This document shows positions 3,233 to 40,700 of a DNA stretch of 64,000 nt, piece by piece. How positions within the stretch are numbered: the first letter of the stretch is position 1; each line of letters begins with the position of its first letter. Below the pieces are notes generated by a model. That model made no database searches. It worked only from the letters and a program-made list of their open reading frames with translations, and was not told the origin of the DNA. The translations under genes and the position numbers were made by a program. The stretch spans positions 13,456 to 77,455 of the forward strand of contig CALRGH010000001.1 in NCBI GenBank assembly GCA_943357245.1. Direction: 5' to 3'. The DNA is from Candidatus Nomurabacteria bacterium (GTDB taxonomy: Bacteria; Patescibacteriota; Minisyncoccia; Phycocordibacterales; UBA9973).

Positions 3233-3299
3233 ATTTTTGGTATAGTAGGGAGACCTTAGGGTGACTTTAAGAAGCCTTAGTGGTGAAATATCGTGTTCA

Positions 3300-3427
3300 G
3301 AAATTTTTTCACGCTTCGCGTAAAAAAACTTTCTGAACCGAATTTTGTGGGTCAAAATTATGGCCGGAAATTTTTTCACGCTTCGCGTAAAAAAACTTTC
3401 CGACACGATTTTTGTGGGTCAAAAATC
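3300..3427 (+). repeat. tandem direct duplication (67 + 61 bp) immediately upstream of tRNA-Thr; each copy contains the palindrome ACGCTTCGCGT
   Basis: GAAATTTTTTCACGCTTCGCGTAAAAAAACTTTC(T/C)GA(AC/CA)CGA(A)TTTTGTGGGTCAAAA is read twice in tandem. The second copy abuts the tRNA 5-prime end and is likely a duplicated promoter/leader. Confidence 0.8.
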
Positions 3428-3500
3428 GCCGCCTTAGCTCAGTTGGTAGAGCTACACTTTTGTAAAGTGAGGGTCCCCAGTTCGAGTCTGGGAGGCGGCT
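3428..3500 (+). tRNA. tRNA-Thr (anticodon TGT)
   Basis: 73-nt cloverleaf folded by hand, with no CCA encoded. Acceptor stem GCCGCCT/AGGCGGC. D-arm GCTC-AGTTGGTA-GAGC. Anticodon stem ACACT/AGTGA with loop TTTGTAA (U33, anticodon TGT, A37). 5-nt variable loop. T-arm CCCAG-TTCGAGT-CTGGG. Discriminator T. Confidence 0.88.
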
Positions 3501-6279: not shown

Positions 6280-6611
6280 CTCTTAATTATAGCAGAAATT
6301 GGCGGATTTGCAACCCTAACTACCAAAATAGGAATAGTATTTTTGTGTCATCCCAGGACTGTCTGTTTTGAGACAGAACCAGGGATCCAGACTTTTGTGT
6401 TCATCTCCCCCTTATCATAGGGGGAGTGGCGAGTCATCGAGGCGAGGGGGTTAGCAATCTCCCACCCCTCCACCTCACAAAGACTCGGTACCTTTCCTTA
6501 CAGGAACAGTACACCTTTTGGCTCCCCTAGACTCGAGCTCAAAAGGTTCTGAAGTTGGGTCCCAGCCCAACTTCAGCCTCAGGTAGGAGAGGAAAAAGCA
6601 AAAGACATTAA

Positions 6612-6640
6612 TTCGCATATTTGCATGTTGTGATATAATG
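6612..6640 (+). promoter_or_regulatory. putative sigma-70 promoter with extended -10 (TTCGCA-16 nt-TGaTATAAT) for the dsbA-like gene
   Basis: TGATATAAT at 6631-6639 is a textbook extended -10. A weak -35 TTCGCA lies 16 nt upstream, about 30 nt before the ATG at 6669. Confidence 0.5.
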
Positions 6641-6668
6641 AACAGACTTATTAAATAATAAAAATTCC

Positions 6669-8195: not shown

Positions 8196-8226
8196 CACAA
8201 AACCCGCCGTACGGCGGGTTTTGTTA

Positions 8227-9561
8227 TTAATCAAAATAGTTACGAAGTCTTGAAATTTTCTCATTATTGCGCAATTTCTCATGCACTTTTGCCTCGATCT
8301 GACGAATACGTTCACGAGTGACACCGAATTCAGTACCTACTTCTTCAAGCGTATGCTGTACCCCATCAGTCAATCCATAGCGAAGTTCCAAAATTTTGCG
8401 TTCTTTCGGAGACAGTTCGGAAAGCACTTCTTTGATTTGATCTTGCAATATGCGGCGTGAAGATTCTTGGTCAGGGCGAAGGATTTTGTCATCCGCGATA
8501 AATTCTCCACGAGTAGATTTGTCTTCATCATCCCCGATTGGTTGTTCGAGTGATACGGTTTCTTGGTTGATGCTTTCAATGATGTGCACCTTCTCAACTT
8601 CAATACCCATTTCTGTTGCAATCTCTTCTGCGAGCGGTTCACGACCCAAATCTTGAGACAATCGGCGCATCACTTGTTTGTATTTTGAAATCGTTTCCAC
8701 CATGTGCACTGGAATACGGATCGTGCGAGATTGGTCTGCGAGTGCACGTGTGATTGATTGGCGAATCCACCACGTCGCATACGTTGAGAATTTAAATCCT
8801 TTCGTCCAGTCGAACTTTTCAACCGCTTTAAACAAACCCAAATTTCCTTCTTGAATAAGATCAAGGAGTGTCAAATCAGAAGAGCGTCCAACATATTTCT
8901 TCGCAATAGAAACCACAAGACGAAGGTTTGCACGCGCGAGCAAATTCTTTGCTTCCATATCACCTGCTTGAATTCGCTTTGCAAGATCTTTTTCTTCTTG
9001 CGCATGGATCAACGGAAATTGTCCAATCTCTTTCAAATAAATCTGGATAGAGTCATAACTCGCTGCATCTTTGGTGCCATATTTGCCGAATGCTTTCGTA
9101 TCATCTTTTGCAGGCACATCGATATCGAGCAAATTACCACCTTCGAGCACATCCACCCCTGCAGTTTGAAATTTATCATAGAGCCCATCCAAGAAAAGCA
9201 CGTTACTTTCGATATCTGGAAACATGCGCAAAATTTCATCATACGTGATGAAGCCACGGCGCTTCCCTTTCTCCACCAAATCCCCCGCTAGTTTATCCCA
9301 AAGCACTGCTCGTTTTTCGGAGACCGTAGCTCGTTTTTTGTCGCCACCTTTTTTGCTCCGCCAGCTGGCGGATTTTTTAGGAGCAGCTTTTTTTACCACT
9401 TTTTTCTTGGCTCCGCCAGCTGGCGGATTTTTTTTCACTACTTTTTTAATTTGCTTTTTTGCAGGCTTTTTAGCTACCTTTTTCTTGGCTCCGCCAGCTG
9501 GCGGATTTTTTTTCACTACTTTTTTCTTTTTTGCTTTTGGCTTTGATTTTTTTGATGACAT
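8227..9561 (-). CDS. rpoD: RNA polymerase sigma-70 factor RpoD with a Lys-rich repetitive N-terminal extension
   Basis: Region 2 ([56 protein letters not shown]) and regions 3-4 are present. The N-terminal roughly 70 aa are [15 protein letters not shown] repeats. It lies downstream of dnaG, the macromolecular synthesis operon arrangement. Confidence 0.92.
9350..9510. repeat. three imperfect tandem repeats (spacing 55 and 78 bp) inside the rpoD 5-prime end, each containing the palindrome CCGCCAGCTGGCGG
   Basis: GCTCCGCCAGCTGGCGGATTTTTT is read at 9358-9371, 9413-9426 and 9491-9504. Copies 2 and 3 are in frame, while copy 1 is shifted by one nucleotide. Confidence 0.8.
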
Positions 9562-11292: not shown

Positions 11293-11431
11293 ATATACCA
11301 ATATACGAATTATACTAATGATACGAATGTTGCGAATGGCACCTCGTTATTTTCTTTATATCGAGAAGGTAGATCTTGAATGCGTTATTCGTAGTATTCG
11401 TATATTCGCACTCATTTGTATGTTTGTATGT

Positions 11432-15122: not shown

Positions 15123-15185
15123 GTAAATAGTTAGTCCGACCTTCGTCGGACTCCGACATAGGTCGGAGTAGTTAGTAATAAATAG
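15123..15185. repeat. double-hairpin repeat element (GTCCGAC-CTTC-GTCGGAC then CTCCGAC-ATAG-GTCGGAG) in the rpoC-rpoB intergenic spacer; inverted second copy at 40634-40700
   Basis: The 48-bp core 15123-15170 is identical to the reverse complement of 40649-40696. Confidence 0.85.
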
Positions 15186-15210: not shown

Positions 15211-18200
15211 CTAGTTTTCAAGATTATCGTTCTTCAATATGACATCAAGTGCAAGACCGCGAAGGTAATTTAACATCACCTTAAACGATGCTGGTGCATT
15301 TGGTTGTCTAATTGGTTCACCTTTGATAATAGAATCAAATGTCTGCGAACGACCTAAAATATCGTCAGACTTAATCGTTAACATTTCACGAAGAATGTGG
15401 GATGCGCCGTATCCTTCAAGTGCCCACACTTCCATTTCTCCGAAGCGTTGACCTCCTCCTTGTGCCTTACCGCCGAGTGGCTGTTGCGTAATGAGTGAGT
15501 AGGGTCCAATTGAACGCATGTGAATCTTGTCTTCCACCATGTGGTGCAGTTTCAAGACATACATATAGCCGATAGCAATATCTTGTTCGAATGCATCACC
15601 GGTGCGTCCATCAAAAAGTTTGATGCGACCGTGTTCTGGGAATCCTCCGGCTACTAATTCTTTCTTAATTTCGTTTTCATTTGCACCAGAGAACGGTGGC
15701 ACGATAGCTTGATAACCAAGCGCATTTGCCGCAAGTCCTAAGTGCATTTCCAAAATCTGTCCAAGGTTCATACGTGATGGGACACCGAGCGGCGTAAGTG
15801 CAATATCAACAGGTGTTCCATCTGCCATGTATGGCATATCTTCTTCAGGTAAGATGATTGAAATAACACCCTTGTTACCGTGGCGACCAGCGAGTTTATC
15901 ACCCACTGAAATGTTGCGGATCTGTGCGACTTCAACAATTACTTTTTTGATGATACCGGATTCCAAATTGTGTCCTTTGTCGCGAGAGAAAATTTTCACG
16001 CCGATAACACGACCACGTTTGCCGTGTTCCATACGAGTTGAGGTATCTTTCACATCGCGTGCTTTTTCTGAGAAGATCGAGCGGAGCAAGCGTTCTTCTG
16101 GCGTGAGTTCTGTTTCGCCTTTTGGAGTAATTTTACCAACCAAAATATCATTTTCGCGCACTTCTGCACCAACACGAATGATGCCTTCTTCATCGAGATC
16201 CTTCAATTTTGTTTCGCCGACGTTTGGAATATCGCGTGTTGTTTGTTCAGGTCCAAGTTTTGTATCGCGAACGGTACAAATAAATTCTTCAATATAAATA
16301 GATGTGAATTTTGAATTCTTTACGAGACGCTCTGAGAGAATGATCGCGTCTTCATAGTTTTGTCCACTCCATGACATGAATGCAACGAGGACGTTTTGTC
16401 CAAGTGCAATTTGTCCATGATCTGTTGTCGAAGTATCTCCGAGCACTTGTCCTTTTTTGACTTTCTCACCTACTGCAACAATTGGACGTTGGTGAAATGA
16501 ACCGAAGTTGTTGGTTCGAGAGAAGTTGACGAGCGGATAATTTATTTTTGTTTTTCCATCAACCACAATGTGCTGTGCATCTACTGCGGTAATAACGCCA
16601 TCTTCTTTTGAAATAATAAGTCGTCCTGAATATCGTGCGGCCAATTCTTCCATACCAGTAGCTACGAGTGGTGCTTCTGGGCGAACCACCGCCATCGCCT
16701 GCTTTTGCATGTTTGATCCCATGAGTGATCGGTTTGCATCATCGTGTTCGAGGAATGGAATCATAGATGTTGCAATAGAAAATGCTTGGTTTGATGCGAC
16801 GTCGATAAAATCCACTTCATCTTTTGCAACAAGACCTGGTTCTGTTTTTACGCGAGCTTCGACGAATGGTGCGGTAATGGTACCTTTATCGTCATATGGG
16901 ATTTGCGCGTGCGCAATGTTGTACTGTTCTTCTTCAAGCGCATTTAAATACACCACTTCGCCGGTGATTTTTCCTTTCTTTACTTTAATATATGGAGATT
17001 CGATGATACCGAAATCGTTCACACGAGCATAGGTTGCCAAGTGCAAGATAAGACCGATGTTCGGACCTTCTGGAGTGTGAATAGGACACACGCGACCATA
17101 GTGGGAGGTGTGTACGTCACGAACTTCAAGAGAAGCGCGTTCACGTGTCAAACCGCCGGGACCGAGTGCTGAGAGGGTTCGCAAGTGCTCGATTTCTGCC
17201 AAGACATTTTCTTGGTTCATAAATTGTGAGAGCTGGTTTGTCGTGAAAAATTCCTTAATACGAGCTTGGAGGGGACGTTGGTTGACGATAGCAATAGGAA
17301 GCGCTGTCGTAATATCGATAGTCGACATACGATCTTGAATGTTGCGCTTGATTTGCGTCATACCGATACGCACTTTTTGCTGGAGCAATTCTCCGACATA
17401 ACGAACTCGGCGTTGTGCCAAGTTGTCGATATCATCTGCTTTTGCATCCGGTGTCGTGATAAGCGTCATGATGTGATCAATGATTGTTGCCAAGTCATCG
17501 ATTGAAAGCGTGCGTCGTGCAAGTTCTTTGTCGCCCATGTCTTTTTCGAATCGTTTGTTGAAACGGAAACGACCGACAGGAGAAAGATCGTAGCGTTCCG
17601 GAGAGAACATATTTTTGATAAATTCGCGAGCATTATCTGCAGTTGCAAGGTCGCCATCGCGAAGACGCTTATAGATTTCAATGTTTGCTGATTGGATATC
17701 TTTTGCAGTATCTTTTTCAATCGCAACAGAAAGCATGTGCTTTGATGCATCAGATTTTACCAATTTTTGCATCGCCGCTAAATCTGTAAGACCAAAAACA
17801 CGCAAAAGAGACGTAATTGGGAATTTACGTTTTTTGTCGATACGGACATAGAGAATACCATCTGCATCGGCTTCAATTTCCATCCACACACCACGTGCCG
17901 GAATGATTTTTGCGCCGAAGAACGTCTTCCCTTTCACTTCATTTTCAATAAAGAACACGCCGAATGAGCGTGCGAGCTGTGGCACAATAACGCGTTCAAC
18001 GCCGTTGATCACAAACGTACCGTGGCCGGTCATCATCGGCACATCTGCCATGAAAATTTCCTGCTCCTTCGCATCGCCCGCCATTGTCTTATTAATAAGC
18101 TTCACGCGCGCTTTCAAAGGCGCTTCGTAGGAGAGCTTATTTGCACGAGCAAAATGTTCGTCATGTTTTGGTTCACCGATATAAAAAGAGACAAATTCAA

Positions 18201-18381
18201 GATCGAACTTTTTTCCTGAATAATCAGAAATTGGCGAAAATTCTTTGAACACTTCTTTCAAACCGCTCTCGATGAGCCAGTCGAATGAAGATATTTGTGT
18301 TTCCAAAAGGTTCGGAAACGGGACAAGAGGCGTCTTATACTTTGAGAAAAATTTCTTTTCTCGGGTGGTGTGTTTCGGCAT
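15211..18381 (-). CDS. rpoB: DNA-directed RNA polymerase subunit beta
   Basis: 1056 aa. Conserved beta-subunit blocks are present, for example GRHGNKGVISIILPEEDMPY and the rifampicin-cluster region. Confidence 0.95.
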   Translation of the reverse strand: MPKHTTREKKFFSKYKTPLVPFPNLLETQISSFDWLIESGLKEVFKEFSPISDYSGKKFDLEFVSFYIGEPKHDEHFARANKLSYEAPLKARVKLINKTMAGDAKEQEIFMADVPMMTGHGTFVINGVERVIVPQLARSFGVFFIENEVKGKTFFGAKIIPARGVWMEIEADADGILYVRIDKKRKFPITSLLRVFGLTDLAAMQKLVKSDASKHMLSVAIEKDTAKDIQSANIEIYKRLRDGDLATADNAREFIKNMFSPERYDLSPVGRFRFNKRFEKDMGDKELARRTLSIDDLATIIDHIMTLITTPDAKADDIDNLAQRRVRYVGELLQQKVRIGMTQIKRNIQDRMSTIDITTALPIAIVNQRPLQARIKEFFTTNQLSQFMNQENVLAEIEHLRTLSALGPGGLTRERASLEVRDVHTSHYGRVCPIHTPEGPNIGLILHLATYARVNDFGIIESPYIKVKKGKITGEVVYLNALEEEQYNIAHAQIPYDDKGTITAPFVEARVKTEPGLVAKDEVDFIDVASNQAFSIATSMIPFLEHDDANRSLMGSNMQKQAMAVVRPEAPLVATGMEELAARYSGRLIISKEDGVITAVDAQHIVVDGKTKINYPLVNFSRTNNFGSFHQRPIVAVGEKVKKGQVLGDTSTTDHGQIALGQNVLVAFMSWSGQNYEDAIILSERLVKNSKFTSIYIEEFICTVRDTKLGPEQTTRDIPNVGETKLKDLDEEGIIRVGAEVRENDILVGKITPKGETELTPEERLLRSIFSEKARDVKDTSTRMEHGKRGRVIGVKIFSRDKGHNLESGIIKKVIVEVAQIRNISVGDKLAGRHGNKGVISIILPEEDMPYMADGTPVDIALTPLGVPSRMNLGQILEMHLGLAANALGYQAIVPPFSGANENEIKKELVAGGFPEHGRIKLFDGRTGDAFEQDIAIGYMYVLKLHHMVEDKIHMRSIGPYSLITQQPLGGKAQGGGQRFGEMEVWALEGYGASHILREMLTIKSDDILGRSQTFDSIIKGEPIRQPNAPASFKVMLNYLRGLALDVILKNDNLEN

Positions 18382-18621: not shown

Positions 18622-19302
18622 TTAGTTTTTAGATTGCTTCCACTCTTCAATTTTCTTGTGATCACCGGAGAGAAGTACTTTTGGAGTTTTGTATTTTTTA
18701 CCTTTATATTCCAAAATTTCAGGACGGGTATAGATTTCAGAACTTGAGACACGTTCTTCTTCGAGTGATTCGAATTTGCCGAGGACACCGGGAATTTGGC
18801 GAGCGAGGCAGTCGAGCACGATCATTGCCGGCAATTCCCCGCCCGTGAGCACATAATCGCCGATCGAGACATGATCTGCTTTCAAAATTTTCGCAACGCG
18901 CGCATCGACACCTTCATAACGGCCACAGATTAATATAATATCAGTATATTTTTTTGCGGTTTGTTTTGCGTATATGGTGTTAAATGATTTTCCGCTCGGT
19001 GAGAAGAAAATAATTTTTGCTTTTCCTTTTTTCTTTGCAATTACTGCAAGCGCTTTATCACAAGCTTTCAACACAGGCTCCGCACGCATCACCATACCCG
19101 GACCACCACCAAACGGTCGATCATCTACGATGCGTGATATGTTGCCGTCAGGCCACACTTTTTTGTGCTTACCGGTGACGAAATCGCGCGGATTATAGTA
19201 CGCGATACTTATTTTCTTTTCTTTAATGGCACGCGCCACAATAGACGCCTCAGTGTACGAGGTAAAACTTTCGGGGAATAAGGTTATGATATGAAATCGC
19301 AT
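18622..19302 (-). CDS. trmD: tRNA (guanine37-N1)-methyltransferase
   Basis: MRFHIITLFPESF...DDRPFGGGPGMVMRAEPV... are TrmD SPOUT motifs. The ORF-track start at 19317 is TTG, so the ATG at 19302 is used. Confidence 0.9.
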   Translation of the reverse strand: MRFHIITLFPESFTSYTEASIVARAIKEKKISIAYYNPRDFVTGKHKKVWPDGNISRIVDDRPFGGGPGMVMRAEPVLKACDKALAVIAKKKGKAKIIFFSPSGKSFNTIYAKQTAKKYTDIILICGRYEGVDARVAKILKADHVSIGDYVLTGGELPAMIVLDCLARQIPGVLGKFESLEEERVSSSEIYTRPEILEYKGKKYKTPKVLLSGDHKKIEEWKQSKN

Positions 19303-19400
19303 GGAGAGACTATACAATAAAAAGTACGTTGTGTCACTAAAACAGCAAAGCAGCGCCGACGTAGTCGGCGCTGCTTTGCTGTTTTAGTTTATTGTGTGTT

Positions 19401-19430
19401 CCCTGCTACTTGCTACCAGTCCCTTGCTAC
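19401..19430 (+). repeat. 30-bp element CCCTGCTACTTGCTACCAGTCCCTTGCTAC (copy a), abutting the stop codon of the KH-domain gene
   Basis: Read directly. Near-identical copies are at 19888-19917 and 22350-22384, with an inverted partial copy at 22270-22294. Confidence 0.85.
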
Positions 19431-19762
19431 TAAATGCCTTTAAGGTCTTCCATTGCCTGATCAACTGTCGATGCACTCATACCTGCGCCACCTGGTGCAG
19501 CGGGAGGTACCAAACGTCCACCTTCTGGCTCGTTGATTTTCAAATTTACTCGAGCGTTGTTTTTCATACCAATGACACGGAGCAATGTTCGGATCGCTTT
19601 TGCGGTATTGCCTTGGCGACCGATAATCTTTCCCATATCAGCTTGATTGACGGACAAGGTAACCAATACTCCCATTTCATCTACCGTTCGATCAATTTTT
19701 ACATCATTCGGATTGTCTACTAATGCTTTCACTACGTACTCTAGAAATTGCTTGTCTTCCAT
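19430..19762 (-). CDS. KH-domain RNA-binding protein (YlqC/UPF0109-like)
   Basis: VGMKNNARVNLKI and IGRQGNTAKAIRTLL (GxxG KH loop). It sits in the conserved rpsP-KH-trmD position. Confidence 0.8.
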   Translation of the reverse strand: MEDKQFLEYVVKALVDNPNDVKIDRTVDEMGVLVTLSVNQADMGKIIGRQGNTAKAIRTLLRVIGMKNNARVNLKINEPEGGRLVPPAAPGGAGMSASTVDQAMEDLKGI

Positions 19763-19839
19763 ATCTTTTATGTTTGTACTAAATGAACAGACGCCTGACG
19801 AGGACGAATCTGTATTCTCTTATGATACCTTTTGTAAAA

Positions 19840-19866
19840 ACCTTCGTCAAACTGACGAAGGTTTTT
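19840..19866. terminator. hairpin ACCTTCGTCA-AAC-TGACGAAGGT with flanking A/T runs (bidirectional terminator or attenuator between rpsP and the KH gene)
   Basis: Perfect 10-bp stem, with GTAAAAA before it and TTTTT after it. Confidence 0.65.
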
Positions 19867-19887
19867 ATGTGGATTATTTTTTGTTTT

Positions 19888-19917
19888 CCCTGCTACTTGC
19901 TACCAGTTCCTTGCTAC
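19888..19917 (+). repeat. 30-bp element CCCTGCTACTTGCTACCAGTTCCTTGCTAC (copy b), overlapping the rpsP stop codon
   Basis: Read directly. It overlaps the rpsP stop (CTA at 19914-19916). Confidence 0.85.
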
Positions 19918-20222
19918 TTACTCGCTTTCATCAACTTTCGTTTCTGTGTTGGTGCTTTCTTCGAAAGGACGTTGCGCTTTTTTGCGGTAAGCACTCCTTC
20001 TTGTACCAAGAAATTATGTACCGTATCTGATACTTGCGCGCCTTCTTTAATGCGCTTCAAGATTGCTTCTTTCTTAAATTCTGGTTTACCAGCATGTGGG
20101 TTATACGCACCCAAAATTTCGATAAATTTACCACTCTTTGCGGCATTTTTTGAATCGGTCAACACGACGCGGAAATGCGCTTCGTTCTTGCGGCCTATTC
20201 GTTCTAATCTGATCTTTAACAT
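19914..20222 (-). CDS. rpsP: 30S ribosomal protein S16
   Basis: MLKIRLERIGRKNEAHFRVVLTDSKNAAKSGKFIEILGAYNP matches the S16 N-terminus. Confidence 0.92.
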   Translation of the reverse strand: MLKIRLERIGRKNEAHFRVVLTDSKNAAKSGKFIEILGAYNPHAGKPEFKKEAILKRIKEGAQVSDTVHNFLVQEGVLTAKKRNVLSKKAPTQKRKLMKASK

Positions 20223-20262
20223 GTGTTCCCTATCCTAACTAAAAACGAACAGAAAGTCAATA

Positions 20263-22269
20263 ATGTCACAAATACTGTATAAAAAACAGTCTTTCTGCTA
20301 TAGTGCCTTTGTAATGCCACACACAAAGAAAGATACGCAGGGTGCTCATGACAAAAAATCATCTGCTCACACACACAAATCGAAGCCGAAAAAAGACCCA
20401 ACAACATATCAAGGAATCATTCTCTTAAACCGTCGCGGGAACGGTTTTTTGCTACATGCCGGTGAGAAAATAACCGTAAGTGCAAAAGATCTCGCTACTG
20501 CACAGCATGGCGACACGGTGAAATTCACGATCTATACAACAAAATGGGGCAAAGGTGCTGATGTCCGTGAAATTATCTCTCGTCGCAAAACCGCCTTCAC
20601 GGGCGTCCTCCGCAAACAAAACGGCGCATACATAGTTCTCGCCGACGATACAAAATTCAACACGCCGATTTTGGTGCATGATGGCTTCCCTTCTGCAATA
20701 AAAGAAGGTGACAAAGTATATATAGACATCACTGATTGGACTGTGGGAAAATTGGGCGGTAGTATTCGAGAAATATTGGGCACACACGGTGAACACAAAA
20801 CAGAAATGGCAAGTATTCTCCGCGACCGTTCGCTTGTCGAAGGATTCCCTGACCACATAGAAAAAGCAGCTGAATCTTTATATGACAATTACGATCCTGA
20901 TCTTGAAGCAAAAACGCGCCGAGATTTTCGCGGTATCGCGACATTTACTATCGATCCTGTTGATGCAAAAGATTTCGACGATGCGCTTTCCTACGAAACA
21001 CTTCCTGACGGCTCGTACGAAGTCGGTGTGCACATTGCCGATGTCTCGCACTTTATCAGACCAAATGACACACTCGATCAACTCGCTCAAGAACGCGGCA
21101 CGTCTATTTATTTGGTTGATCGCGTTATTCCCATGCTTCCGGAAACACTATCAAACGACTTAGCGAGTTTGAAAGAAAAAGTAGACCGTCTCACCATGAG
21201 TGCGGTGTTCACGTTTAATAAAGAAGGGCAAATTATAAAAGAATGGTTTGGTAAGACCATTATTTATTCGCAAAAAAGATTTAGTTATGAATCTGCAGAA
21301 GCGATTCTCGACGGTGGCGAAGGCCCTTTTCAAAAAGAACTGCTCGCATTAAATACAATCGCAAAATCAAGAATAAAAGGTCGTGCAGTTCGCGGTGCAC
21401 TAGAGCTCGACAGCGATGAAGTAAAAGCGGATTTAAATGCAGACGGACTTATTGTCGGATTCCATCACAAAACACGCGGTCAAAGTCACCGACTTGTTGA
21501 AGAACTCATGCTTTTGGCAAATGAATACGTCGCAACATTTATCGAGAAGAAAACAAAAGTCATTGGCTTCTATCGCATTCACGACAATCCAGAACTCGGA
21601 CGCATCGAAGATTTGCGCGGATTTCTTGCAAAACTTGATTATAAATTAGAAGGCAAAGGTGGTGACCCGTTGCGCAAAAGTTTTCGTAAAATTTTAAAGT
21701 TAGCAGCGGATGACAAAGCACATGATGCAATTCAAGTGTCTATTATTCGCAGTATGGCAAAAGCGATTTACTCAACCACCAACAAAGGCCACTTTGGTTT
21801 GGCGCTCGGCACCTACACGCACTTCACCTCACCTATTCGCCGATATCCAGATGTCATCGTGCACCGCATTTTGCAAGCACTCCTCACAGGCGTAAACGAA
21901 CCCTACAATGTACAAACATTACATTCATTTGCGGACACAACATCTGCACAAGAGCGAAATGCGCAAGATGCAGAACGCTCATCTATCAAATTAAAACAAA
22001 TGGAATATTTACTCGCACGAAAAGAAAACATATTTACCGGACGTATCACCAATATCAATGGCTGGGGCGCATTCGTGGAAGAGCAAACATCTGCATGTGA
22101 AGGATTTATCAAAGTAGAATTATTTCCGAAAGAATGTGTCTTTGATGAGAAAAAATTGCAGATTGAAAATAAAACAACGAATCAAATCTGGCGCATCGGT
22201 GATGAACTTCCTATTAAAGTCGCAAACGTAGATATGGATAGAAAAGAGGTGGATTTCAAGCTGGCATAA
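20263..22269 (+). CDS. rnr: ribonuclease R / RNase II-family 3-prime to 5-prime exoribonuclease
   Basis: RNB catalytic motifs DFDDALS...IADVSHF and GHFGLALGTYTHFTSPIRRYPDVIVHR. A C-terminal S1-like segment is present. An alternative start at the internal Met (MPHTKK) is possible. Confidence 0.88.
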   Translation: MSQILYKKQSFCYSAFVMPHTKKDTQGAHDKKSSAHTHKSKPKKDPTTYQGIILLNRRGNGFLLHAGEKITVSAKDLATAQHGDTVKFTIYTTKWGKGADVREIISRRKTAFTGVLRKQNGAYIVLADDTKFNTPILVHDGFPSAIKEGDKVYIDITDWTVGKLGGSIREILGTHGEHKTEMASILRDRSLVEGFPDHIEKAAESLYDNYDPDLEAKTRRDFRGIATFTIDPVDAKDFDDALSYETLPDGSYEVGVHIADVSHFIRPNDTLDQLAQERGTSIYLVDRVIPMLPETLSNDLASLKEKVDRLTMSAVFTFNKEGQIIKEWFGKTIIYSQKRFSYESAEAILDGGEGPFQKELLALNTIAKSRIKGRAVRGALELDSDEVKADLNADGLIVGFHHKTRGQSHRLVEELMLLANEYVATFIEKKTKVIGFYRIHDNPELGRIEDLRGFLAKLDYKLEGKGGDPLRKSFRKILKLAADDKAHDAIQVSIIRSMAKAIYSTTNKGHFGLALGTYTHFTSPIRRYPDVIVHRILQALLTGVNEPYNVQTLHSFADTTSAQERNAQDAERSSIKLKQMEYLLARKENIFTGRITNINGWGAFVEEQTSACEGFIKVELFPKECVFDEKKLQIENKTTNQIWRIGDELPIKVANVDMDRKEVDFKLA

Positions 22270-22384
22270 GTTGGTAGCAAGTAGCAAGGGTTTCAAAACA
22301 ATATAAACACAAGTGCAGGATTTGGCGAAGCCAAATCCTGCACTTGTGTCTTCCCTGCTACTTGCTACCAGTACCTTGCTACAA
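22270..22384. repeat. composite MITE-like unit: inverted partial copy of the 30-bp element (22270-22294), 20-bp-stem perfect hairpin (22307-22349), direct copy of the element (22350-22384)
   Basis: GTTGGTAGCAAGTAGCAAGGG (reverse complement of CCCTTGCTACTTGCTACCAAC), then ACACAAGTGCAGGATTTGGC-GAA-GCCAAATCCTGCACTTGTGT, then CTTCCCTGCTACTTGCTACCAGTACCTTGCTACA. It lies between the rnr stop and the capA start. Confidence 0.8.
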
Positions 22385-22406
22385 GCAGTATGCTACCATA
22401 CTGCTT

Positions 22407-23441
22407 ATGCGTTACCTCATCCTCCCTATTTCCATCGCACTTTTCATTGCCGCTATCGGCTTTATTCCTGCGCGCGATTCTATTATTAGTGACGGCAAAA
22501 AAGAAACCCCGACAAAAATGATCGAACAACAAGAGCCTGTTCCAGAATTACCAAAAAGTACCAGTATTGTATTTGGTGGCGACATCATGCTTGCGCGAAG
22601 CGTGCGCACAAGCGTAGAGAAAAATTTTGGCGGCGACTACTCAAAACTATTTGATAATCTCACTGTATTCCGCGATGCAGATATCGCATTTGCAAATCTT
22701 GAAGGACCCATTTCCGAAAATGGTAAAAATGTCGGTAGTATTTATTCATTTCGATTTGATCCTAAAGTTGCGCCAGTCTTAGCTGATGCAGGATTTGATG
22801 TTGTCTCATTTGCAAATAATCATGTCGGCGATTGGACCAAGCGTGCATTTGATGACACGCTCGTGCATTTACAAAATGCGGGTATTGGATTTACTGGTGC
22901 AGGTATTAATAAACAACAAGCAGGGACGCCATATGTCATAGAAAAAAATGGCGTGCGGTATGGATTTCTTGCACTATCTGATGTTGGTCCAAACTGGCTC
23001 ATGGCAACAGACACAAGTGCTGGTATTTTAATTGCAGATTCTAAAACACTTCCACAAATCGTAACCGATGCAAAAACGTGGTGCGATTTTCTTATTGTGT
23101 CATTCCACTGGGGTACCGAATACAAACCGCACAATGCACGACAGACAACATTGGCACACACAGCGATAGATAATGGCGCCGACATGATTATTGGCGCACA
23201 TCCACATGTGGAGCAAGCGACGGAATGGTATAAAAATAAGTTTATCGCGTACAGTTTGGGTAATTTGATTTTCGACCAATATTTTTCTCCTGCAACCATG
23301 CAGGGACTTATCATCCGCGCAGATATTGATATCGACCACAATGTCACCATCAAAAAATACACCATGAAATTAAATACGATGTACCAGCCGGAATCTGTTA
23401 CTGAAAAAATAGAGGCTCCTGAAAATACTCCCCAAGAATAA
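22407..23441 (+). CDS. CapA/PgsA-family metallophosphatase-fold protein (poly-gamma-glutamate / capsule biosynthesis protein CapA-like)
   Basis: SIVFGGDIMLARSV...FANLEGPISENG...SFANNHVGDW...HWGTEYKPHN...GAHPHVEQ...GNLIFDQ are CapA/YwtB motifs. The annotated ORF start at 22344 translates the repeat element (MCLPCYLLPVPCY), so the ATG at 22407 (MRYLILPISIALF signal-anchor) is used. Confidence 0.82.
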   Translation: MRYLILPISIALFIAAIGFIPARDSIISDGKKETPTKMIEQQEPVPELPKSTSIVFGGDIMLARSVRTSVEKNFGGDYSKLFDNLTVFRDADIAFANLEGPISENGKNVGSIYSFRFDPKVAPVLADAGFDVVSFANNHVGDWTKRAFDDTLVHLQNAGIGFTGAGINKQQAGTPYVIEKNGVRYGFLALSDVGPNWLMATDTSAGILIADSKTLPQIVTDAKTWCDFLIVSFHWGTEYKPHNARQTTLAHTAIDNGADMIIGAHPHVEQATEWYKNKFIAYSLGNLIFDQYFSPATMQGLIIRADIDIDHNVTIKKYTMKLNTMYQPESVTEKIEAPENTPQE

Positions 23442-23448
23442 ATTGGTT

Positions 23449-23494
23449 ACAGTGTGCTCGAATTTGGCTTCGCCAAATTCGAGCACACTGTTTT
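23449..23494 (+). terminator. 20-bp perfect hairpin ACAGTGTGCTCGAATTTGGC-TTC-GCCAAATTCGAGCACACTGT followed by TTTT (capA terminator; TTTGGC/GCCAAA family)
   Basis: Read directly, 8 nt after the capA stop. Confidence 0.75.
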
Positions 23495-27864: not shown

Positions 27865-27906
27865 CCAAAAGCAGGGTTTGGCCTATAAGCCAAACCCTGC
27901 TTTTGG
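27865..27906. repeat. 18-bp-stem perfect hairpin CCAAAAGCAGGGTTTGGC-CTATAA-GCCAAACCCTGCTTTTGG (TTTGGC/GCCAAA family, same 10-bp core as 1124-1155)
   Basis: Read directly, between the SMC-like stop and the next gene. Confidence 0.8.
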
Positions 27907-27952
27907 TATTTTGTCGCTCATTACCCCCTAAAACCTAACCCCCCTACCCTGT

Positions 27953-30223
27953 CTATTTGGCATACTGCCCTGCCTCATCAAGCTTGATGGAAAGGACTTT
28001 TGAGACACTGTCGGAGCCAATGGTGACACCGTAGAGCACGCCAGCACGAGACATTGTTTCGCGATTGTGGGTGACGACAACGAGTTCTGATATGTGCGAG
28101 AGTCGCTCAATCATACTGCCGTATTTGCGAGAGTTCGCTTCATCGAGCGCAGCGTCAGTCTCATCGAGCACCAAAAATGGCGGCGGGTTTACTTGTGATA
28201 TTGCAAAGAGAAGCGCGATAGACGTAAGACTACGTTCCCCACCGGAGAGCATTGCGAGATCGCGCACTTTTTTCTGTGGCAGAGATACATGGACTTCGAC
28301 ACCACGTTCAAATCCTTCTTCGGCTTCTTCTGGTGAATCCGAAATGGACAAGTCCTCTTCGTCATCAGTTATTTTCGGCTTGCGCTTATGCATCATCGTC
28401 ACTTCGAGAAATGCGTCTCCCCCACCAAACATCACTTTGAAAAAATCTTTGAATTGCGTATTGATTTTGTGAATACCGCTTTTAAATTCTGCTTCGAGCT
28501 TCTCGCGCAGATCCATAATGAGCTCTTCTAAATTTTTGATTGCATCCGTTACATCAGCGAGTTCTTTTATTAAAAATGTATCGCGCTCTTGCGCTTCTTG
28601 ATATTCTTTTATGGTATCAATACCTGAACCGCCGCCGATTTCCTCGAGTTTTATTTTTGCACGTTCAAGTGTGTGTTTTAATGTTGCGCGTTCTTCGACA
28701 CTCAATACTTCCGGCGCATTGCGCGCAAGTTGGCCAATTTCTGGACCGATGAGCACACCACCTTCGCGAAGTTCTAAATCAAAGGCTTCGTTGTCGCGAG
28801 TATGTCTCTCTTCAACAAGCGTCAGCGCACGAAGCTCTGAAAGTGTTCGCTCGAACGCTTGGCGTGCTTCGTAATACGCACGTTCTTCTTCTCGAGCATT
28901 CGTGGTTTCGTACTTTATTTTTTCTTCTAAGACCTCAATCTCTTTTGTAATGTGTGCTTCTTGTTGTTGTAACTCTGTATACGTTGTTTGCGCAGCAGCT
29001 AGCTCTTGTTCGATGCGCGCAATATCGTCATGCGTTTTTTCTTCGTGCGCGGATTCTGCAATACTAGATTTAAATTGCGCAACCGCATGACGAATTGCGG
29101 TCAAGCGTTCCAATATTTCTTCTTTTGTAGATTCTGTAAATGCACGGTCTGCGTCTTCTAAAATGACGTCGCACAAGTTTGATACTTTTTCGTAGGATAT
29201 TGGTGCATGTTCATGATATGCCGTATGTACTGGCTTTTTGACAAGCTCGAGCGCACCTTCCAAACGACCAAGTACGCGAAGTAATGCATCTCGCTCTTCA
29301 GTTATTTTTCGGCGCTTTGCAATGAGCTCGATGCGTTCTTTCTGTTCAGCACTTTCAACACTGCCACCGTGCGACATTTTTTGTTCGTGCTCTGCGACAC
29401 TTTTTTCATGGAGTCGTTTTGCATCAAGCAGAGATTTTTTCTGCTCACCAATCGTTGCTTGTTCTTGTATGAGATATGCATGCACCGATGGCAAATATCT
29501 GCCGTACATTTCTTTTACTTCTTCGCGAAGTGATTTTGTGCGTTCTATTTTCTCAACTTGTTTTTTGAGGAACGTAATGTGCGGTGCGATTTCTCGGCGA
29601 AGACTTTGTGCCTCGCGCATATTCTCGCGAGATTTTTCTAATTTACGTTCGCTCTCACGAATACGATATTGATAGACTTTGAGCCCAAGCGCATCTTCGA
29701 TCATCTCTCGGCGATCTTTGGCACGTGCCGTAAGAATATGATCTGCCTCGCCTTGAGAGATAATGTGGTGACCGGATGCGCCAATGTGTACCGACGAGAG
29801 AAGTTCGACAATATCTTTGAGGCGCACATCCGTGCCATTTATTTTGTACGCTGATGAACCATCGGCGTACACTTCGCGAGTAATGGATATTTCATCAAAA
29901 TCTACGGAGAGTGCTCCGTCAGCTGACGGATCGCCCGCACTTGCGAATTGGAATTTGCGATTGTGATTATCAAAGACAATCGTGACTGATGCGCGTGACG
30001 GTGCGACGGTTCCCTTGCCTCCTTTGAAGATAAGATCAGTGCCACCTTTTCCGCGCAGCGATTTCATCGACTGTTCACCGAGCACGAAACGAATAGCTTC
30101 GACAACGTTTGATTTGCCCGAACCATTGGGACCAACAATGCCCGTGACCGGAGACGTAAAAATAAACTCGGTCTTCTTGCCGAATGATTTGAAACCGTTA
30201 AGTTCAAGGCGCTTGAGCGTCAT
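27953..30223 (-). CDS. SMC-family ATPase, short (756 aa) and apparently hinge-less
   Basis: N-terminal head MTLKRLELNGFKSFGKKTEFIFTSPVTGIVGPNGSGKSNVVEAIRFVLGEQS (Walker A). About 400 aa of coiled coil. C-terminal ABC signature LSGGERSLTSIALLFAI and Walker B FLVLDETDAALD. The ending VTHNRETMSRAGVLYGVTIGSDSVSKVLSIKL is typical of SMC. No hinge-like domain was found. Confidence 0.75.
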   Translation of the reverse strand: MTLKRLELNGFKSFGKKTEFIFTSPVTGIVGPNGSGKSNVVEAIRFVLGEQSMKSLRGKGGTDLIFKGGKGTVAPSRASVTIVFDNHNRKFQFASAGDPSADGALSVDFDEISITREVYADGSSAYKINGTDVRLKDIVELLSSVHIGASGHHIISQGEADHILTARAKDRREMIEDALGLKVYQYRIRESERKLEKSRENMREAQSLRREIAPHITFLKKQVEKIERTKSLREEVKEMYGRYLPSVHAYLIQEQATIGEQKKSLLDAKRLHEKSVAEHEQKMSHGGSVESAEQKERIELIAKRRKITEERDALLRVLGRLEGALELVKKPVHTAYHEHAPISYEKVSNLCDVILEDADRAFTESTKEEILERLTAIRHAVAQFKSSIAESAHEEKTHDDIARIEQELAAAQTTYTELQQQEAHITKEIEVLEEKIKYETTNAREEERAYYEARQAFERTLSELRALTLVEERHTRDNEAFDLELREGGVLIGPEIGQLARNAPEVLSVEERATLKHTLERAKIKLEEIGGGSGIDTIKEYQEAQERDTFLIKELADVTDAIKNLEELIMDLREKLEAEFKSGIHKINTQFKDFFKVMFGGGDAFLEVTMMHKRKPKITDDEEDLSISDSPEEAEEGFERGVEVHVSLPQKKVRDLAMLSGGERSLTSIALLFAISQVNPPPFLVLDETDAALDEANSRKYGSMIERLSHISELVVVTHNRETMSRAGVLYGVTIGSDSVSKVLSIKLDEAGQYAK

Positions 30224-30262: not shown

Positions 30263-30577
30263 ATGCTTGACAAATATATTTTAATATGCTATTATACCAA
30301 TAAACCATACAGTATGAAAAAGATAAAAATAGGAATGAATTCTTTGCTTTACTTTGCAAAAAAAGTTACCGAAACCGTTTCATTTATGAAGGAAAAAACA
30401 TTGATTAAAGCAGGTACCACATGGGAAATCGTTGAACCAGGCCCCGGTCATCTTGACAGCGGAGTGAGTTTAAAAAATATTGAAACCGGAAAAAGAATTT
30501 ATATTCATACACAAAGAGAATTTGCGGCGATACTATTAGATGAGAGCCATGAAATTTATGTTATAGAAAAACAATAA
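30263..30577 (+). CDS. hypothetical small protein (104 aa)
   Basis: ORF followed by three successive hairpins. Confidence 0.4.
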   Translation: MLDKYILICYYTNKPYSMKKIKIGMNSLLYFAKKVTETVSFMKEKTLIKAGTTWEIVEPGPGHLDSGVSLKNIETGKRIYIHTQREFAAILLDESHEIYVIEKQ

Positions 30578-30623: not shown

Positions 30624-30683
30624 TTTCGCGTTGGCCTGGGTCCCGATTTTCATCGGGGTGACACAGAGAACAATAACAAAAAA

Positions 30684-30718
30684 GGATTGGATTTGCTTCG
30701 CAAATCCAATCCTTTTTT
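30684..30718. terminator. bidirectional terminator GGATTGGATTTGC-TTC-GCAAATCCAATCC flanked by A5 and T6
   Basis: Perfect 13-bp stem. It serves the convergent genes 30263-30577 (+) and rnc (-). Confidence 0.8.
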
Positions 30719-30762
30719 GTGTGTTCACTAAACCCTAAGCCCTAAACGCTATACCCTATTTC

Positions 30763-31455
30763 CTAACTCCACTTCTTTGCCACAAGCGCAGCCTTAGCCG
30801 CTTCTTGTTCTGCCTCCTGTTTTGATTTCCCTTTTGCACTACCGAGCAATTCTTTGCCGACATAGACACCGATAGAAAATTGCTTATCGTGATCAGGACC
30901 AGATTGCGACAATACTTTGTACACCGGCGTGATGCCCATGTGTTCTTGTGCTTTTTCTTGGATCAAACTTTTTGGATCTTGCCACAATTTTTCTGCAACG
31001 ATTTGCTCGGTGAGTGGCAATAAATTTTGTGCAATAAAATCACTCGCCGCATCATAGCCGCGATCAAGATAAATCGCGCCGATAACTGCTTCAAAGGTAT
31101 TCGCAAGAATATAGTGACGCGCCTTGCCCAAATCTTTTGATTCACCGCGAGAGAGCATGAGATGCTCGTTCATATTTAATTTGCGCGCAACATCTGCGAT
31201 AGTATGTGAGTTCACAAGGGCAGCGCGATATGCGGTGAGTTCGCCTTCATTTTTCGTCGGATATTTTTTGTATAAAAACGACGTGACGACAAGTTCAAGA
31301 ACCGCATCGCCCAAAAATTCTAAGCGCTCGTTGTGGGAAAATCCAGTCTTCGGATTTTCATTGATATAGGACCGGTGCACAAATGCTTGCAAGAGTAAGT
31401 CTTTATTTGCAAAATGTACACCTATTGATTGCTCAAATGGAGTTAGATCTTTCAT
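30763..31455 (-). CDS. rnc: ribonuclease III
   Basis: RNase III signature ERLEFLGDAVLELVVTSFLY and a C-terminal dsRBD (KQEAEQEAAKAAL). Confidence 0.92.
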   Translation of the reverse strand: MKDLTPFEQSIGVHFANKDLLLQAFVHRSYINENPKTGFSHNERLEFLGDAVLELVVTSFLYKKYPTKNEGELTAYRAALVNSHTIADVARKLNMNEHLMLSRGESKDLGKARHYILANTFEAVIGAIYLDRGYDAASDFIAQNLLPLTEQIVAEKLWQDPKSLIQEKAQEHMGITPVYKVLSQSGPDHDKQFSIGVYVGKELLGSAKGKSKQEAEQEAAKAALVAKKWS

Positions 31456-31466
31456 GAGATTAGGTG

Positions 31467-31491
31467 CTAGGTTCTAGTTGCTAGGGTCTAG
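31467..31491. repeat. four tandem 7-bp units each carrying CTAG (CTAGGTT CTAGTTG CTAGGGT CTAG) 12-36 nt upstream of the rnc start codon
   Basis: CTAG is at 31467, 31474, 31481 and 31488. AGATCT palindromes flank the cluster at 31445 and 31516. Confidence 0.7.
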
Positions 31492-31546: not shown

Positions 31547-31587
31547 GCTCGCTTTTTCCAGATACCCGGTATCTGGAAAAAGCGAGC
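31547..31587. terminator. 19-bp perfect hairpin GCTCGCTTTTTCCAGATAC-CCG-GTATCTGGAAAAAGCGAGC immediately downstream of the nusB-nudix stop
   Basis: Read directly. No clear T-run follows. Confidence 0.6.
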
Positions 31588-32764: not shown

Positions 32765-33376
32765 TTATTGTTTTCTTGAAAAGTTCTTCAGAAATGAGCG
32801 CCGGTGGATTTCAGTAACACCATGTTTTTTAATGGCGGCATAGTGCGCGCGAGTGCCGTAGCCGACATGACGCTCAAATCCATATTCCGGATATTTTTTT
32901 GCTATTTTTTGCATATGGCCGTCGCGCATTACTTTTGCACAGATAGACGCGAGCGAAATAACGGGTATTTTTTCATCCCCTTTTATAATTGTCTGTTGAT
33001 TTTTATACTCAACTGGCGCTTTAAGTCCGCCGTCGAGGAAAATAAGTTGATAGCTTTTAGTGTTTAGCTTATAGAGAGAACGCGCAAGAGCAAAACGAAT
33101 CGCAGGCGCAATACCGATCTTGTCTATTTTTTGTGCGCTCACCATCGAGACAACAAAATCACACTTTCCTTCTTTTTGTAATTTTTTGATTTCGGCAAAC
33201 CATAATTCGCGTTGTAATTTTGAAAGTTTTTTGGAGTCGCGAAGGGGTAATTTGCCGAGCGATTTTTGCAGCAAAAATCGCTCGACTCCTTTTTCAGTAA
33301 TCATAAACGCACAAACCGCCACCGGTCCTGCCAGCGGTCCACGTCCCACTTCATCAATACCAACGATGTATTTCAT
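32765..33376 (-). CDS. rnhB: ribonuclease HII
   Basis: MKYIVGIDEVGRGPLAGPVAVCAF...RDSKKLS are RNase HII motifs. The start is taken at MKYIVGIDE; the longer annotated ORF adds 10 uncertain residues. Confidence 0.85.
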   Translation of the reverse strand: MKYIVGIDEVGRGPLAGPVAVCAFMITEKGVERFLLQKSLGKLPLRDSKKLSKLQRELWFAEIKKLQKEGKCDFVVSMVSAQKIDKIGIAPAIRFALARSLYKLNTKSYQLIFLDGGLKAPVEYKNQQTIIKGDEKIPVISLASICAKVMRDGHMQKIAKKYPEYGFERHVGYGTRAHYAAIKKHGVTEIHRRSFLKNFSRKQ

Positions 33377-33417
33377 GTCCCCATCATAGCAAAACCTCCC
33401 ATACATTGTAGGGGAGG

Positions 33418-39630: not shown

Positions 39631-39640
39631 TAAATAGAGC

Positions 39641-39698
39641 AAAAGCAACCGTAGTCAATTTTTCGCCATGGCGAAAAATTGACTACGGTTGCTTTTTT
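39641..39698. terminator. 25-27-bp-arm perfect palindrome centred on CCATGG followed by T6 (thrS terminator)
   Basis: AAAAGCAACCGTAGTCAATTTTTCGCC-AT-GGCGAAAAATTGACTACGGTTGCTTTT then TTTT. Confidence 0.8.
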
Positions 39699-40430: not shown

Positions 40431-40440
40431 GAGGTTTTTT
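40413..40440. terminator. bidirectional terminator CCTCTCAC-AAATAC-GTGAGAGG flanked by A6 and T6
   Basis: Read directly. Confidence 0.75.
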
Positions 40441-40633: not shown

Positions 40634-40700
40634 CTATTTACTATTTACTACTCCGACCTATGTCGGAGTCCGACGAAGGTCGGACTAACTATTTACTAAT
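40634..40700. repeat. inverted copy of the double-hairpin element seen at 15123-15185, abutting the gyrB stop codon
   Basis: TACTCCGACCTATGTCGGAGTCCGACGAAGGTCGGACTAACTATTTAC at 40649-40696 is the exact reverse complement of 15123-15170. Confidence 0.85.

Follow-up and report, generated by a model that had tools for sequence, protein, structure and literature searches.

A 30-bp gene-end element and the TAG-phased heptanucleotide arrays of a Nomurabacteria-like genome

A 30-bp sequence recurs at the 3′ ends of rpsP, a KH-protein gene and rnr within 3 kb of the Candidatus Nomurabacteria contig CALRGH010000001.1, raising the question of what kind of element it is. The window analyzed here is the whole 64,000-nucleotide stretch at positions 13,456 to 77,455 of that contig, and coordinates count from its first letter. 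An earlier reading made from the letters alone (the sequence-only reading) had taken the element for a conserved binding array in the 3′ untranslated region (3′-UTR), part of a unit resembling a miniature inverted-repeat transposable element (MITE), and a possible target of the KH protein. The non-random occurrence, gene-end placement and unstructured nature of the element stood up to analysis; its conservation, its MITE character and the KH link did not. We favor another reading, to which we give about an even chance: the 30-bp element belongs to a lineage-specific, fast-changing family of (TAG-N4)n arrays and is not a conserved regulatory site.

The window was searched with the degenerate 30-mer CCCTGCTACTTGCTACCAGYYCCTTGCTAC, with 100 dinucleotide-preserving shuffles as the null. 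Three plus-strand matches were found (19401-19430 and 19888-19917 with 0 mismatches, 22353-22382 with 1); the shuffles held none, and the chance expectation was 0. A 15-nt core search added an inverted partial copy at 22273-22287 in the minus-strand spelling. Three near-identical 30-bp copies and one inverted partial copy within 3 kb, against 0 in 100 shuffles, bear out the claim that the copies are non-random. Similarity among the three full copies continues leftward for about 9 nt (TTGTGTGTT / TTTTGTTTT / TTGTGTCTT), giving a unit of about 40 nt, and a repeat finder reported a 50-nt family in which identity to the reference copy is 86% and 80%. The exact element does not recur in the remaining 61 kb. 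The copies and their common head are as follows.

19401-19430, minus strand: copy 1, TAGCAAG GGACTGG TAGCAAG TAGCAGG G; the KH/KhpA-like gene ends in the first TAG of this copy (19430-19432)
19888-19917, minus strand: copy 2, the same array as copy 1 with GAACTGG as unit 2; its first TAG (19914-19916) is the rpsP stop codon
22353-22382, TAG strand minus: copy 3, 1 mismatch; on the plus strand it lies 25 nt upstream of the PGA_cap ATG at 22407
22272-22290, plus strand: partial inverted copy (18 bp), TGGTAGCAAGTAGCAAGGG; it begins 3 nt past the rnr TAA and pairs with the start of copy 3
19392-19400, plus strand: T/G-rich head TTGTGTGTT, common to the three copies and found also at 19879-19887 and 22344-22352

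The sense-strand spelling for rpsP and the KH gene is TAGCAAG / GnACTGG / TAGCAAG / TAGCAGG / G, a 7-nt register of TAG that opens with the stop-codon TAG. Unit 2 (GnACTGG) is degenerate and lacks TAG, leaving UAG at register positions 1, 3 and 4. The three TTGCTAC half-sites proposed earlier are better described as in-register TAG/CTA triplets with period 7: TTGCTAC alone is not enriched in the window (9 occurrences versus 6.9 expected). An unbiased scan took all 64 trinucleotides at periods 4-12 and set the number of three-in-register runs, both strands included, against order-2 Markov simulations; its largest excess was for TAG-N4-TAG-N4-TAG (17 observed versus 0.10 expected). TAG at any other scanned period occurred 0-1 times. 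For the remaining non-homopolymer trinucleotides and for all tetranucleotides, the period-7 count was 2 at most, so TAG alone is kept. Tandem Repeats Finder independently reported period 7 at 19891-19919, 22274-22288, 30728-30758 and 31461-31491, with the units of copy 2 matching at 63%.

The phasing is family-wide. At least eight further loci in the window carry TAG arrays with differing N4, most of them abutting the end of an open reading frame (ORF) and reading toward a long perfect hairpin. TAG arrays and TAG-rich stretches away from the 3-kb cluster include the following.

30728-30765, minus strand: six-unit array, TAGGAAA TAGGGTA TAGCGTT TAGGGCT TAGGGTT TAG; its first TAG is the RNase III stop codon, and it runs into the hairpin at 30676-30720
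31461-31491, plus strand: five-unit array, TAGGTGC TAGGTTC TAGTTGC TAGGGTC TAG; it stands outside the RNase III gene, 5 nt from the start codon, and reads toward the hairpin at 31547-31587
39621-39637, plus strand: array TAGAAAC TAGTAAA TAG; it spans the stop codon of the threonyl-tRNA synthetase (ThrRS) gene, with 3 nt between its end and the 28-bp palindrome at 39641-39696
27910-27955, minus strand: TAG-rich and G-rich trailer of the SMC gene, TAGACAGGG TAGGGGGGT TAGGTTT TAGGGGG TAA, reading toward the hairpin at 27865-27906
1195-1273: facing pair of four-unit TAG arrays upstream of rpsB, 1195-1218 on the plus strand and 1250-1273 on the minus strand
40634-40698, minus strand: TAG/TAA-rich flanks of a double-hairpin module after gyrB, with an identical 50-nt core at 15123-15172 (plus strand)

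By inspection of 17 arrays, among them those of two other genomes discussed below (L031 and L005), about 14 point away from the closest ORF end and about 3 do otherwise. In the 45 nt next to intergenic hairpins, TAG points toward the hairpin 34 times versus 18 times away from it, and 36-nt gene trailers contain 28 sense versus 9 antisense TAG triplets. About seven of the nine ORFs in the automatic list that stop with TAG continue, again by inspection, into an array or another TAG-rich stretch. On the sense strand, arrays stand 3-24 nt upstream of terminator-like hairpins in the rpsP-KH-trmD operon and after the rnr, RNase III, SMC and ThrRS genes. The phasing also extends beyond gene ends: it occurs in many intergenic spacers of the window, including those at gene starts.

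Two further observations concern individual loci. The 50-nt core of the double-hairpin module, GTAAATAGTTAGTCCGACCTTCGTCGGACTCCGACATAGGTCGGAGTAGT, is identical at 15123-15172 (plus strand, rpoB-rpoC spacer) and 40639-40694 (minus strand, after gyrB); the two loci lie 25 kb apart in opposite orientation with TAG-rich flanks and make up a second short dispersed repeat family. A four-unit TAG-N4 run at 33051-33074 (plus strand) lies antisense inside the RNase HII gene (32765-33406, minus strand). Such a run has a low expectation by chance, but this one, which relatives at 96% identity keep with changes as coding sequence, is probably a coincidence of that coding sequence.

Gene order, taken from the ORF listing and Pfam scans, places the copies of the 30-bp element among these genes.

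15211-18381, minus strand: rpoB
18622-19317, minus strand: trmD
19430-19762, minus strand: KhpA-type KH-protein gene, stop codon TAG at 19430-19432
19914-20222, minus strand: rpsP, stop codon TAG at 19914-19916
20263-22269, plus strand: rnr, stop codon TAA at 22267-22269
from the ATG at 22407, plus strand: PGA_cap gene

The stop codons of the KH gene and rpsP (both TAG) overlap copies 1 and 2, and the plus-strand spelling is antisense to the gene at all gene ends concerned. The copies therefore lie at the 3′ ends of the rpsP, KH and rnr messages, with stop codons overlapping or adjoining them, as the sequence-only reading had described. That reading had not picked out the 7-nt TAG phasing across the family, the absence of the exact element elsewhere in the window, or the separate hairpin that stands beside each copy. 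The three hairpins are mutually unrelated in sequence; a fourth, small one adjoins copy 3.

19336-19388, KH gene/trmD spacer: perfect 25-bp stem, intrinsic-terminator-like on both strands; copy 1 reads toward it
19835-19867, rpsP/KH spacer: perfect 15-bp stem between an A-run and a T-run; copy 2 reads toward it
22307-22349, rnr/PGA_cap spacer: perfect 20-bp stem, bracketed by the inverted pair
22383-22406, plus strand: small hairpin AAGCAGTATG-CTAC-CATACTGCTT, ending right at the PGA_cap ATG

Copies 1 and 2 are single-stranded in RNA folds, and the hairpins downstream of them fold at -55 kcal/mol (z = -6.9) and -32 kcal/mol. At the rnr locus, the two arms pair around the hairpin, and the entire fold reaches -82.8 kcal/mol (z = -11.8). 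The element itself forms no stem in RNA folding and so is not an intrinsic terminator, which consists of a G+C-rich stem-loop and a U-tract; the neighboring hairpins, not the element, match the terminator scan. The element lacks self-complementarity, and the inverted pair brackets a perfect hairpin with a 20-bp stem, both as claimed. The CYLLPVPCY peptides, rightly called spurious, come from translation of the element. At gathering score, the sole Rfam 15 match in the whole window was one tRNA, and an E-value threshold applied to 19250-22450 gave sub-threshold chance matches only.

Long perfect palindromes (stems 14-28 bp, loops 0-6 nt) lie at most transcription-unit borders in the window, at the following positions.

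1122-1157, 8197-8224, 19336-19388, 19835-19867, 22307-22349 and 23449-23491: border palindromes, stems 14-28 bp
27865-27906, 30676-30720, 31547-31587, 39641-39696, 40407-40440 and 42799-42840: border palindromes, stems 14-28 bp

How stable are the element and its relatives over evolutionary time? Searches with RNase R and SMC place the window in Patescibacteria (Paceibacteria/Nomurabacteria-like), with a few relatives at 95-96% protein identity and the next nearest at 46% (RNase R) and 52% (SMC). The relatives compared were L031 (96% RNase R), L155 and L156 (96% SMC), and L032, L033 and L034 (46% RNase R; 50 kb in total). In L031, the rpsP-KH spacer lacks the element and measures 16 nt versus 46 nt in the window, the final rpsP codons and stop differ (AAK-TAA versus ASK-TAG in the window), and the hairpin differs at four stem positions, all compensated. 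The KH-trmD spacer of the same contig holds a different hairpin inside an inverted pair of other TAG arrays (TAGAAAG TAGGTAG TAGTAAG TAGG). In L155 and L156, the rnr-PGA_cap spacer is unrelated to that of the window and holds a different hairpin element, and the RNase III and SMC trailers carry TAAG-rich arrays, spaced at 6 or 7, in place of TAG-N4.

The element is thus absent from both spacers that were checkable in the 96% relatives (rpsP-KH and rnr-PGA_cap), and arrays are missing, replaced or altered at 96% identity, a polymorphism of both length and sequence between close relatives. The three 46% relatives have the same gene order with tight or overlapping genes and no TAG arrays in their 50 kb. 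Two Logan contigs, L157 and L010, come from the same strain; L010 ends inside copy 2, and the L031 contig terminates exactly at the rnr stop codon. Such breaks at or in the element fit a short repeat or palindrome that disrupts short-read assembly.

Neighboring features change over the same distances. At the palindrome sites, the 96% relatives have other stems with both arms changed together (at rpsP-KH, the four compensated positions), and this pattern suggests that palindrome arms may be homogenized against each other rather than mutated one position at a time. The RNase III-SMC spacer holds different small ORFs: one without a Pfam match in the window (30263-30577) and a DUF559 endonuclease-type ORF in the 96% relatives (L155 3566-3925). 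Another small ORF, of GIY-YIG type, lies at 48812-49096, and small selfish-looking genes appear to turn over in such spacers.

Outside this lineage, the exact element was not found. An 18-mer scan of 185,579 species genomes (596 Gb), a collection that does not include the source genome, returned 9 singleton matches and one of the JGI metagenomes returned 20, none with the full 30-mer; IMG/VR gave 0 matches, and phage GenBank records held no match to the element. Looked up as exact proteins, the products of the KH gene, trmD and the last gene in the window gave no match. Several of the chance 18-mer matches fall in CTAC/TAG heptamer arrays of unrelated bacteria, and TAG arrays with other N4 occur in the chance-matched genomes L005 (Daviesbacteria, with three additional arrays), L009 (Peribacteraceae), L029 and L004; L006 has a TGA-phased heptamer (CTTGATA x5) after a gene end. 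A viral scan for (TAG-N4)x6 found at least 120 stretches, and most of the 70 arrays viewed were plain identical-unit heptamer repeats, which shows that TAG-containing heptamers are common; the scan gives no measure of enrichment.

Conservation of a 3′-UTR element is therefore not what these data describe. The exact sequence has no full match in the genome and metagenome scans, is absent from the checkable spacers of the 96% relatives and is confined to one 3-kb cluster, the pattern of a single locus with local duplication, which goes against a specific element. The exact 30-bp sequence has no conserved function and is probably a recent local copy.

The element is instead one member of a hypervariable TAG-phased family, whose arrays edge ORFs, often with the ORF's own TAG stop as their first unit, and read inward to the palindromic hairpins that separate transcription units. 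Their birth and resizing would probably reflect replication slippage of the heptamer. The three near-identical copies may have spread locally and recently, through short-patch gene conversion or template switching at the neighboring palindromes, and the inverted arm at rnr could be a palindrome extension; transposition is an unlikely origin. In the mRNA, an array would form a purine-rich stretch that lacks structure, presents UAG in all three frames and immediately precedes an intrinsic-terminator hairpin, although this is the weakest step of the proposal. Our best guess is that the role of such a stretch would be at most that of a generic spacer or insulator before the terminator, not a sequence-specific site.

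Several observations weigh against this proposal. Slippage alone predicts identical, evenly decaying units, whereas here TAG is invariant and N4 differs; because TAG is strictly retained while N4 drifts, there must be some selection or constraint on the TAG triplet. Stop codons as such are not in excess in trailers (2.28 stop triplets per 36 nt versus 2.27 in shuffled sequence; all three frames closed in 17% versus 12%, p = 0.26), and period 7 is used exclusively, though 4, 5 and 8 would likewise close three frames. Antisense arrays upstream of starts (22353, 31461, 1250, L005 7561 and L031 1645) would make no sense as stop signals. Gene conversion among the three copies would be read from their identity. 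The copy counts cover 64 kb of the genome (of an 84-kb contig), and copies outside the window are possible; two short-read contigs end at or inside the element, a kind of break that suits a repeat.

The closest known kind of sequence is the bacterial heptanucleotide simple-sequence repeat, from which the present arrays differ in their TAG-only conservation and their coupling to palindromes. Heptamers are given as the most abundant long simple-sequence repeats in bacteria in an account citing Mrazek 2007 (PMC4679880). In Xanthomonas and Nostoc, GGGNATC heptamers show a preference for four units and vary between close relatives, and their function is unknown; GGGNATC and GGGGA(C/T)T follow a rule of lying in intergenic regions near an ORF on the 5′ side of the repeat, whatever the orientation of that ORF (PMC4692102). 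Like the heptanucleotide repeats in general (cyanobacterial STRR, GGGNATC and long simple-sequence repeats), the arrays described here consist of 7-nt head-to-tail units, often about four, in intergenic positions and sometimes in inverted pairs. The likeness to the Xanthomonas and Nostoc repeats goes further: the G-rich strand is the coding strand at or within 50 bp of a stop codon (or overlapping it) or the non-coding strand upstream of a start, the repeats vary between close relatives, there is no association with insertion sequences, and the function is unknown. However, the units here are not copies of one heptamer, as only three of seven positions (TAG) are kept and four drift. The arrays are also coupled to long perfect hairpins and occur in a patescibacterial host, and the 30-bp element has too few G-tracts for a regular quadruplex. 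No literature on such repeats in Patescibacteria was found.

A second heptamer offers a partial parallel. TAACTGA direct repeats occur in marine Beggiatoaceae, cyanobacteria and some Bacteroidetes, and a post-transcriptional binding protein has been proposed for them, though never identified (PMC4679880). They too form heptamer arrays (2-6 units) that are stop-rich in one orientation, lie in intergenic regions, including those of ribosomal-protein operons, and belong to genomes in which Shine-Dalgarno sites are rare. Unlike the TAG arrays, in which N4 is free, TAACTGA is one fixed heptamer, mostly placed just upstream of starts in the 'forward' orientation, whereas most arrays here lie past stop codons and face hairpins. 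In the window, Shine-Dalgarno-like motifs were seen in about 6 of 50 genes (25 nt upstream of starts); leaders contain 14.7% G versus 19.7% overall, and CCT-ATG or CTC-ATG is a frequent ending. These features suggest that the lineage may initiate translation without Shine-Dalgarno pairing.

Could the arrays instead be RNA operators? A ring-forming or multimeric protein of the HutP or TRAP type might bind (UAG-N4)n and alter the folding of terminators, thereby setting the level of read-through out of rpsP toward the KH gene and trmD, as well as at other genes with arrays; we consider this unlikely. The operator of HutP in the Bacillus subtilis hut operon consists of three UAG triplets separated by four sequence-independent spacer nucleotides and adjoins the hut terminator; the model RNA was (UUUAGUU)3, and the contacts in the natural RNA are at U498, U505 and U512 (PMC2425495). 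The signature in the window matches this motif exactly, with UAG alone conserved, a strict period of 7 and free N4. At least three UAG at 4-nt spacing (3-6 consecutive units in the sister arrays) stand single-stranded on the sense strand beside an intrinsic terminator, at the 3-24 nt given above, and arrays are carried by a subset of genes, as in a regulon.

Other evidence is hard to reconcile with such an operator. HutP is known from Firmicutes, and Pfam scans of 50 window proteins matched neither the HutP nor the TRAP family. Inspection of the 5′ arms of the hairpins at 19336-19388, 19835-19867 and 22307-22349 found no second in-register XAG site, and unit 2 of the element is not UAG. The HutP operator lies in one 5′ leader, whereas the arrays here are many and hypervariable, stand on both sides of hairpins and past genes, and also occur upstream of starts in the CTA orientation. 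The 96% relatives, which swap TAG-N4 for TAAG at spacing 6 or 7 or have no arrays, are difficult to fit to a conserved regulon.

Alternatively, the arrays may act on ribosomes. A 7-nt step puts a stop codon in each frame, which would release read-through or frameshifted ribosomes before they reach the next gene or melt the terminator hairpin; this three-frame backstop, too, seems unlikely. It would account for arrays that start at or overlap the natural stop on the sense strand, for the sense bias of TAG in trailers (28 versus 9), for the TAA-rich arrays at the same positions in L155 and for the TGA-phased heptamer past a gene end in L006, and TAACTGA repeats are likewise stop-rich in one orientation (PMC4679880). 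However, trailers show no overall excess of stop triplets or of three-frame closure relative to shuffles, and a backstop would not require period 7 to the exclusion of 4, 5 and 8. It would also not require up to six units where three suffice, and it fits neither the several antisense arrays that face away from gene starts nor unit 2 of the 30-bp element, which lacks a stop.

Rather unlikely, in our judgment, is a broader possibility: that (UAG-N4)n arrays make up a distinct, selected class of bacterial intergenic signal, a landing pad with a 7-nt step for a multimeric RNA-binding protein. If so, a HutP-like protein or a chain of OB-fold or cold-shock-type proteins would tune termination or 3′-end stability in many housekeeping operons. 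Such a signal would have several independent origins, within Patescibacteria (this lineage, Daviesbacteria and Peribacteraceae) and in other phyla, and the 30-bp element would be its latest local expansion, taking in rpsP, the KH gene and rnr.

Heptanucleotide repeats (STRR, GGGNATC or TAACTGA) have no established function, and the window offers an unusually clean case: at ORF ends and terminator-like palindromes, a single triplet is held in a 7-nt register while the other positions drift, and the arrays turn over at about 96% protein identity, which points to selection on the periodic triplet. Simple slippage debris is an unlikely description of these arrays. Whatever their role, the arrays explain CYLLPVPCY-type ORFs, the unusual share of TAG stops at array-bearing genes and assembly contig breaks in this lineage, all of which bear on annotation.

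A mobile origin was also weighed, in which the 30-40-bp unit is the end of a small non-autonomous element, MITE-like or like the repetitive extragenic palindromic (REP) sequences, that inserts beside gene-end hairpins. Three near-identical copies with an inverted partner bracketing a hairpin, an orthologous rpsP-KH spacer without the element in a 96% relative, and two short-read contigs ending in or at the element would all be expected of such an element, and the same genome has other short dispersed repeats (the double-hairpin module and the TGTGTCAYCC-hairpin-GGRTCCAGRC family described below). The arrays also resemble REP, BIME, REPIN and MITE sequences in being short extragenic repeats at gene 3′ ends, some in inverted pairs round a hairpin, with a GTAG motif.

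The resemblance does not extend to the structure of these elements, and we regard a mobile origin as quite improbable. The repeated unit of REP is an imperfect palindrome preceded by GTAG, with many dispersed copies and an associated RAYT gene, whereas here the palindromes all differ and the repeated part is unstructured; the hairpins next to the three copies are unrelated and so offer no shared core. The MITE-like unit proposed by the sequence-only reading likewise lacks support: two arms occur at one locus only, and there are no terminal inverted repeats round a common core and no target-site duplication. Comparison with L031 shows instead that about 16 nt have been replaced by about 46 nt, with the last rpsP codons rewritten too. 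The 3.5 copies all lie within 3 kb and none in the rest of the window, searches of 596 Gb of reference genomes, of JGI metagenomes and of IMG/VR turned up no full copy, and neither a transposase nor a RAYT-type gene was seen among the window proteins scanned.

The weakest alternative, a binding site for the KhpA-like KH protein or trans-antisense pairing between plus-strand RNA of copy 3 and the rpsP and KH 3′-UTRs to form an RNase III substrate, is very improbable: copies 1 and 2 do flank the KH gene, copy 3 on the plus strand is complementary at 29 of 30 positions to each minus-strand 3′-UTR copy, and an RNase III gene lies in the window, yet nothing ties the KH protein to the element, which is missing or replaced by unrelated arrays in relatives that have the same protein. 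The inverted partner of copy 3 sequesters that copy in cis (-82.8 kcal/mol), arrays with other N4 stand at unrelated genes, KH domains read about 4 nt, and we know of no periodic motif for KhpA.

Six other candidates were rejected. The element contains no acceptable -35/-10 pair of a sigma-70-type promoter on either strand, and its G-tracts are too few for a G-quadruplex. The window shows neither a single motif nor the density of a DNA uptake sequence, and the arrays lack the strand bias of primase CTA initiation sites. Footprints of a transposon with a 7-bp target duplication would not keep TAG, and window-wide selection for backup stops was tested in trailers and not found.

A third repeat family, TGTGTCAYCC - short hairpin - GGRTCCAGRC, occurs in the window at 6344-6392 (plus strand) and 30634-30665 (minus strand). 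It is also present in the rnr-PGA_cap spacer of L155, the site of copy 3 in the window, and at 4183-4214 of L158, where the copy begins directly past a stop codon and the contig ends inside it. The TGTGTCAYCC head resembles the TTGTGTsTTCCC head of the 30-bp element.

Repeats of other periods share the facing arrangement. The dnaG-rpoC spacer (11295-11408) contains five 9-nt units, ATACGAATG, with an inverted set, TATTCGTAG, 67 nt away; this array is not heptameric, yet it is arranged like the facing TAG pairs. A gene for a 114-aa '23S rRNA-intervening sequence protein' (PF05635; 47217-47561, minus strand) lies between arrays at 47190-47230 and 47565-47601, inverted arrays of 8-9-nt tandem units (AGTTATAA / CTTTATAA), and the locus looks like a small inserted cassette.

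Structured repeats and hairpins also occur apart from any array. Between glycosyltransferase and thioredoxin-like genes, about 390 nt (6280-6668) hold no convincing gene and several G+C-rich hairpins (e.g., CCCCCTTATCATAGGGGGAG); the sole ORF, of 80 aa, was judged spurious, and no Rfam family matched there at the gathering threshold. A 67-nt tandem duplication (79% identity; 3277-3410), with the hairpin GAAATTTTTTCACGCTTCGCGTAAAAAAACTTTC in each copy, stands directly upstream of the only tRNA gene of the window (3428-3500). The region encoding the N-terminal part of the primary sigma factor (sigma-70 gene 8227-9561) contains 78-nt coding repeats at 9328-9538, each with the palindrome TCCGCCAGCTGGCGGA.

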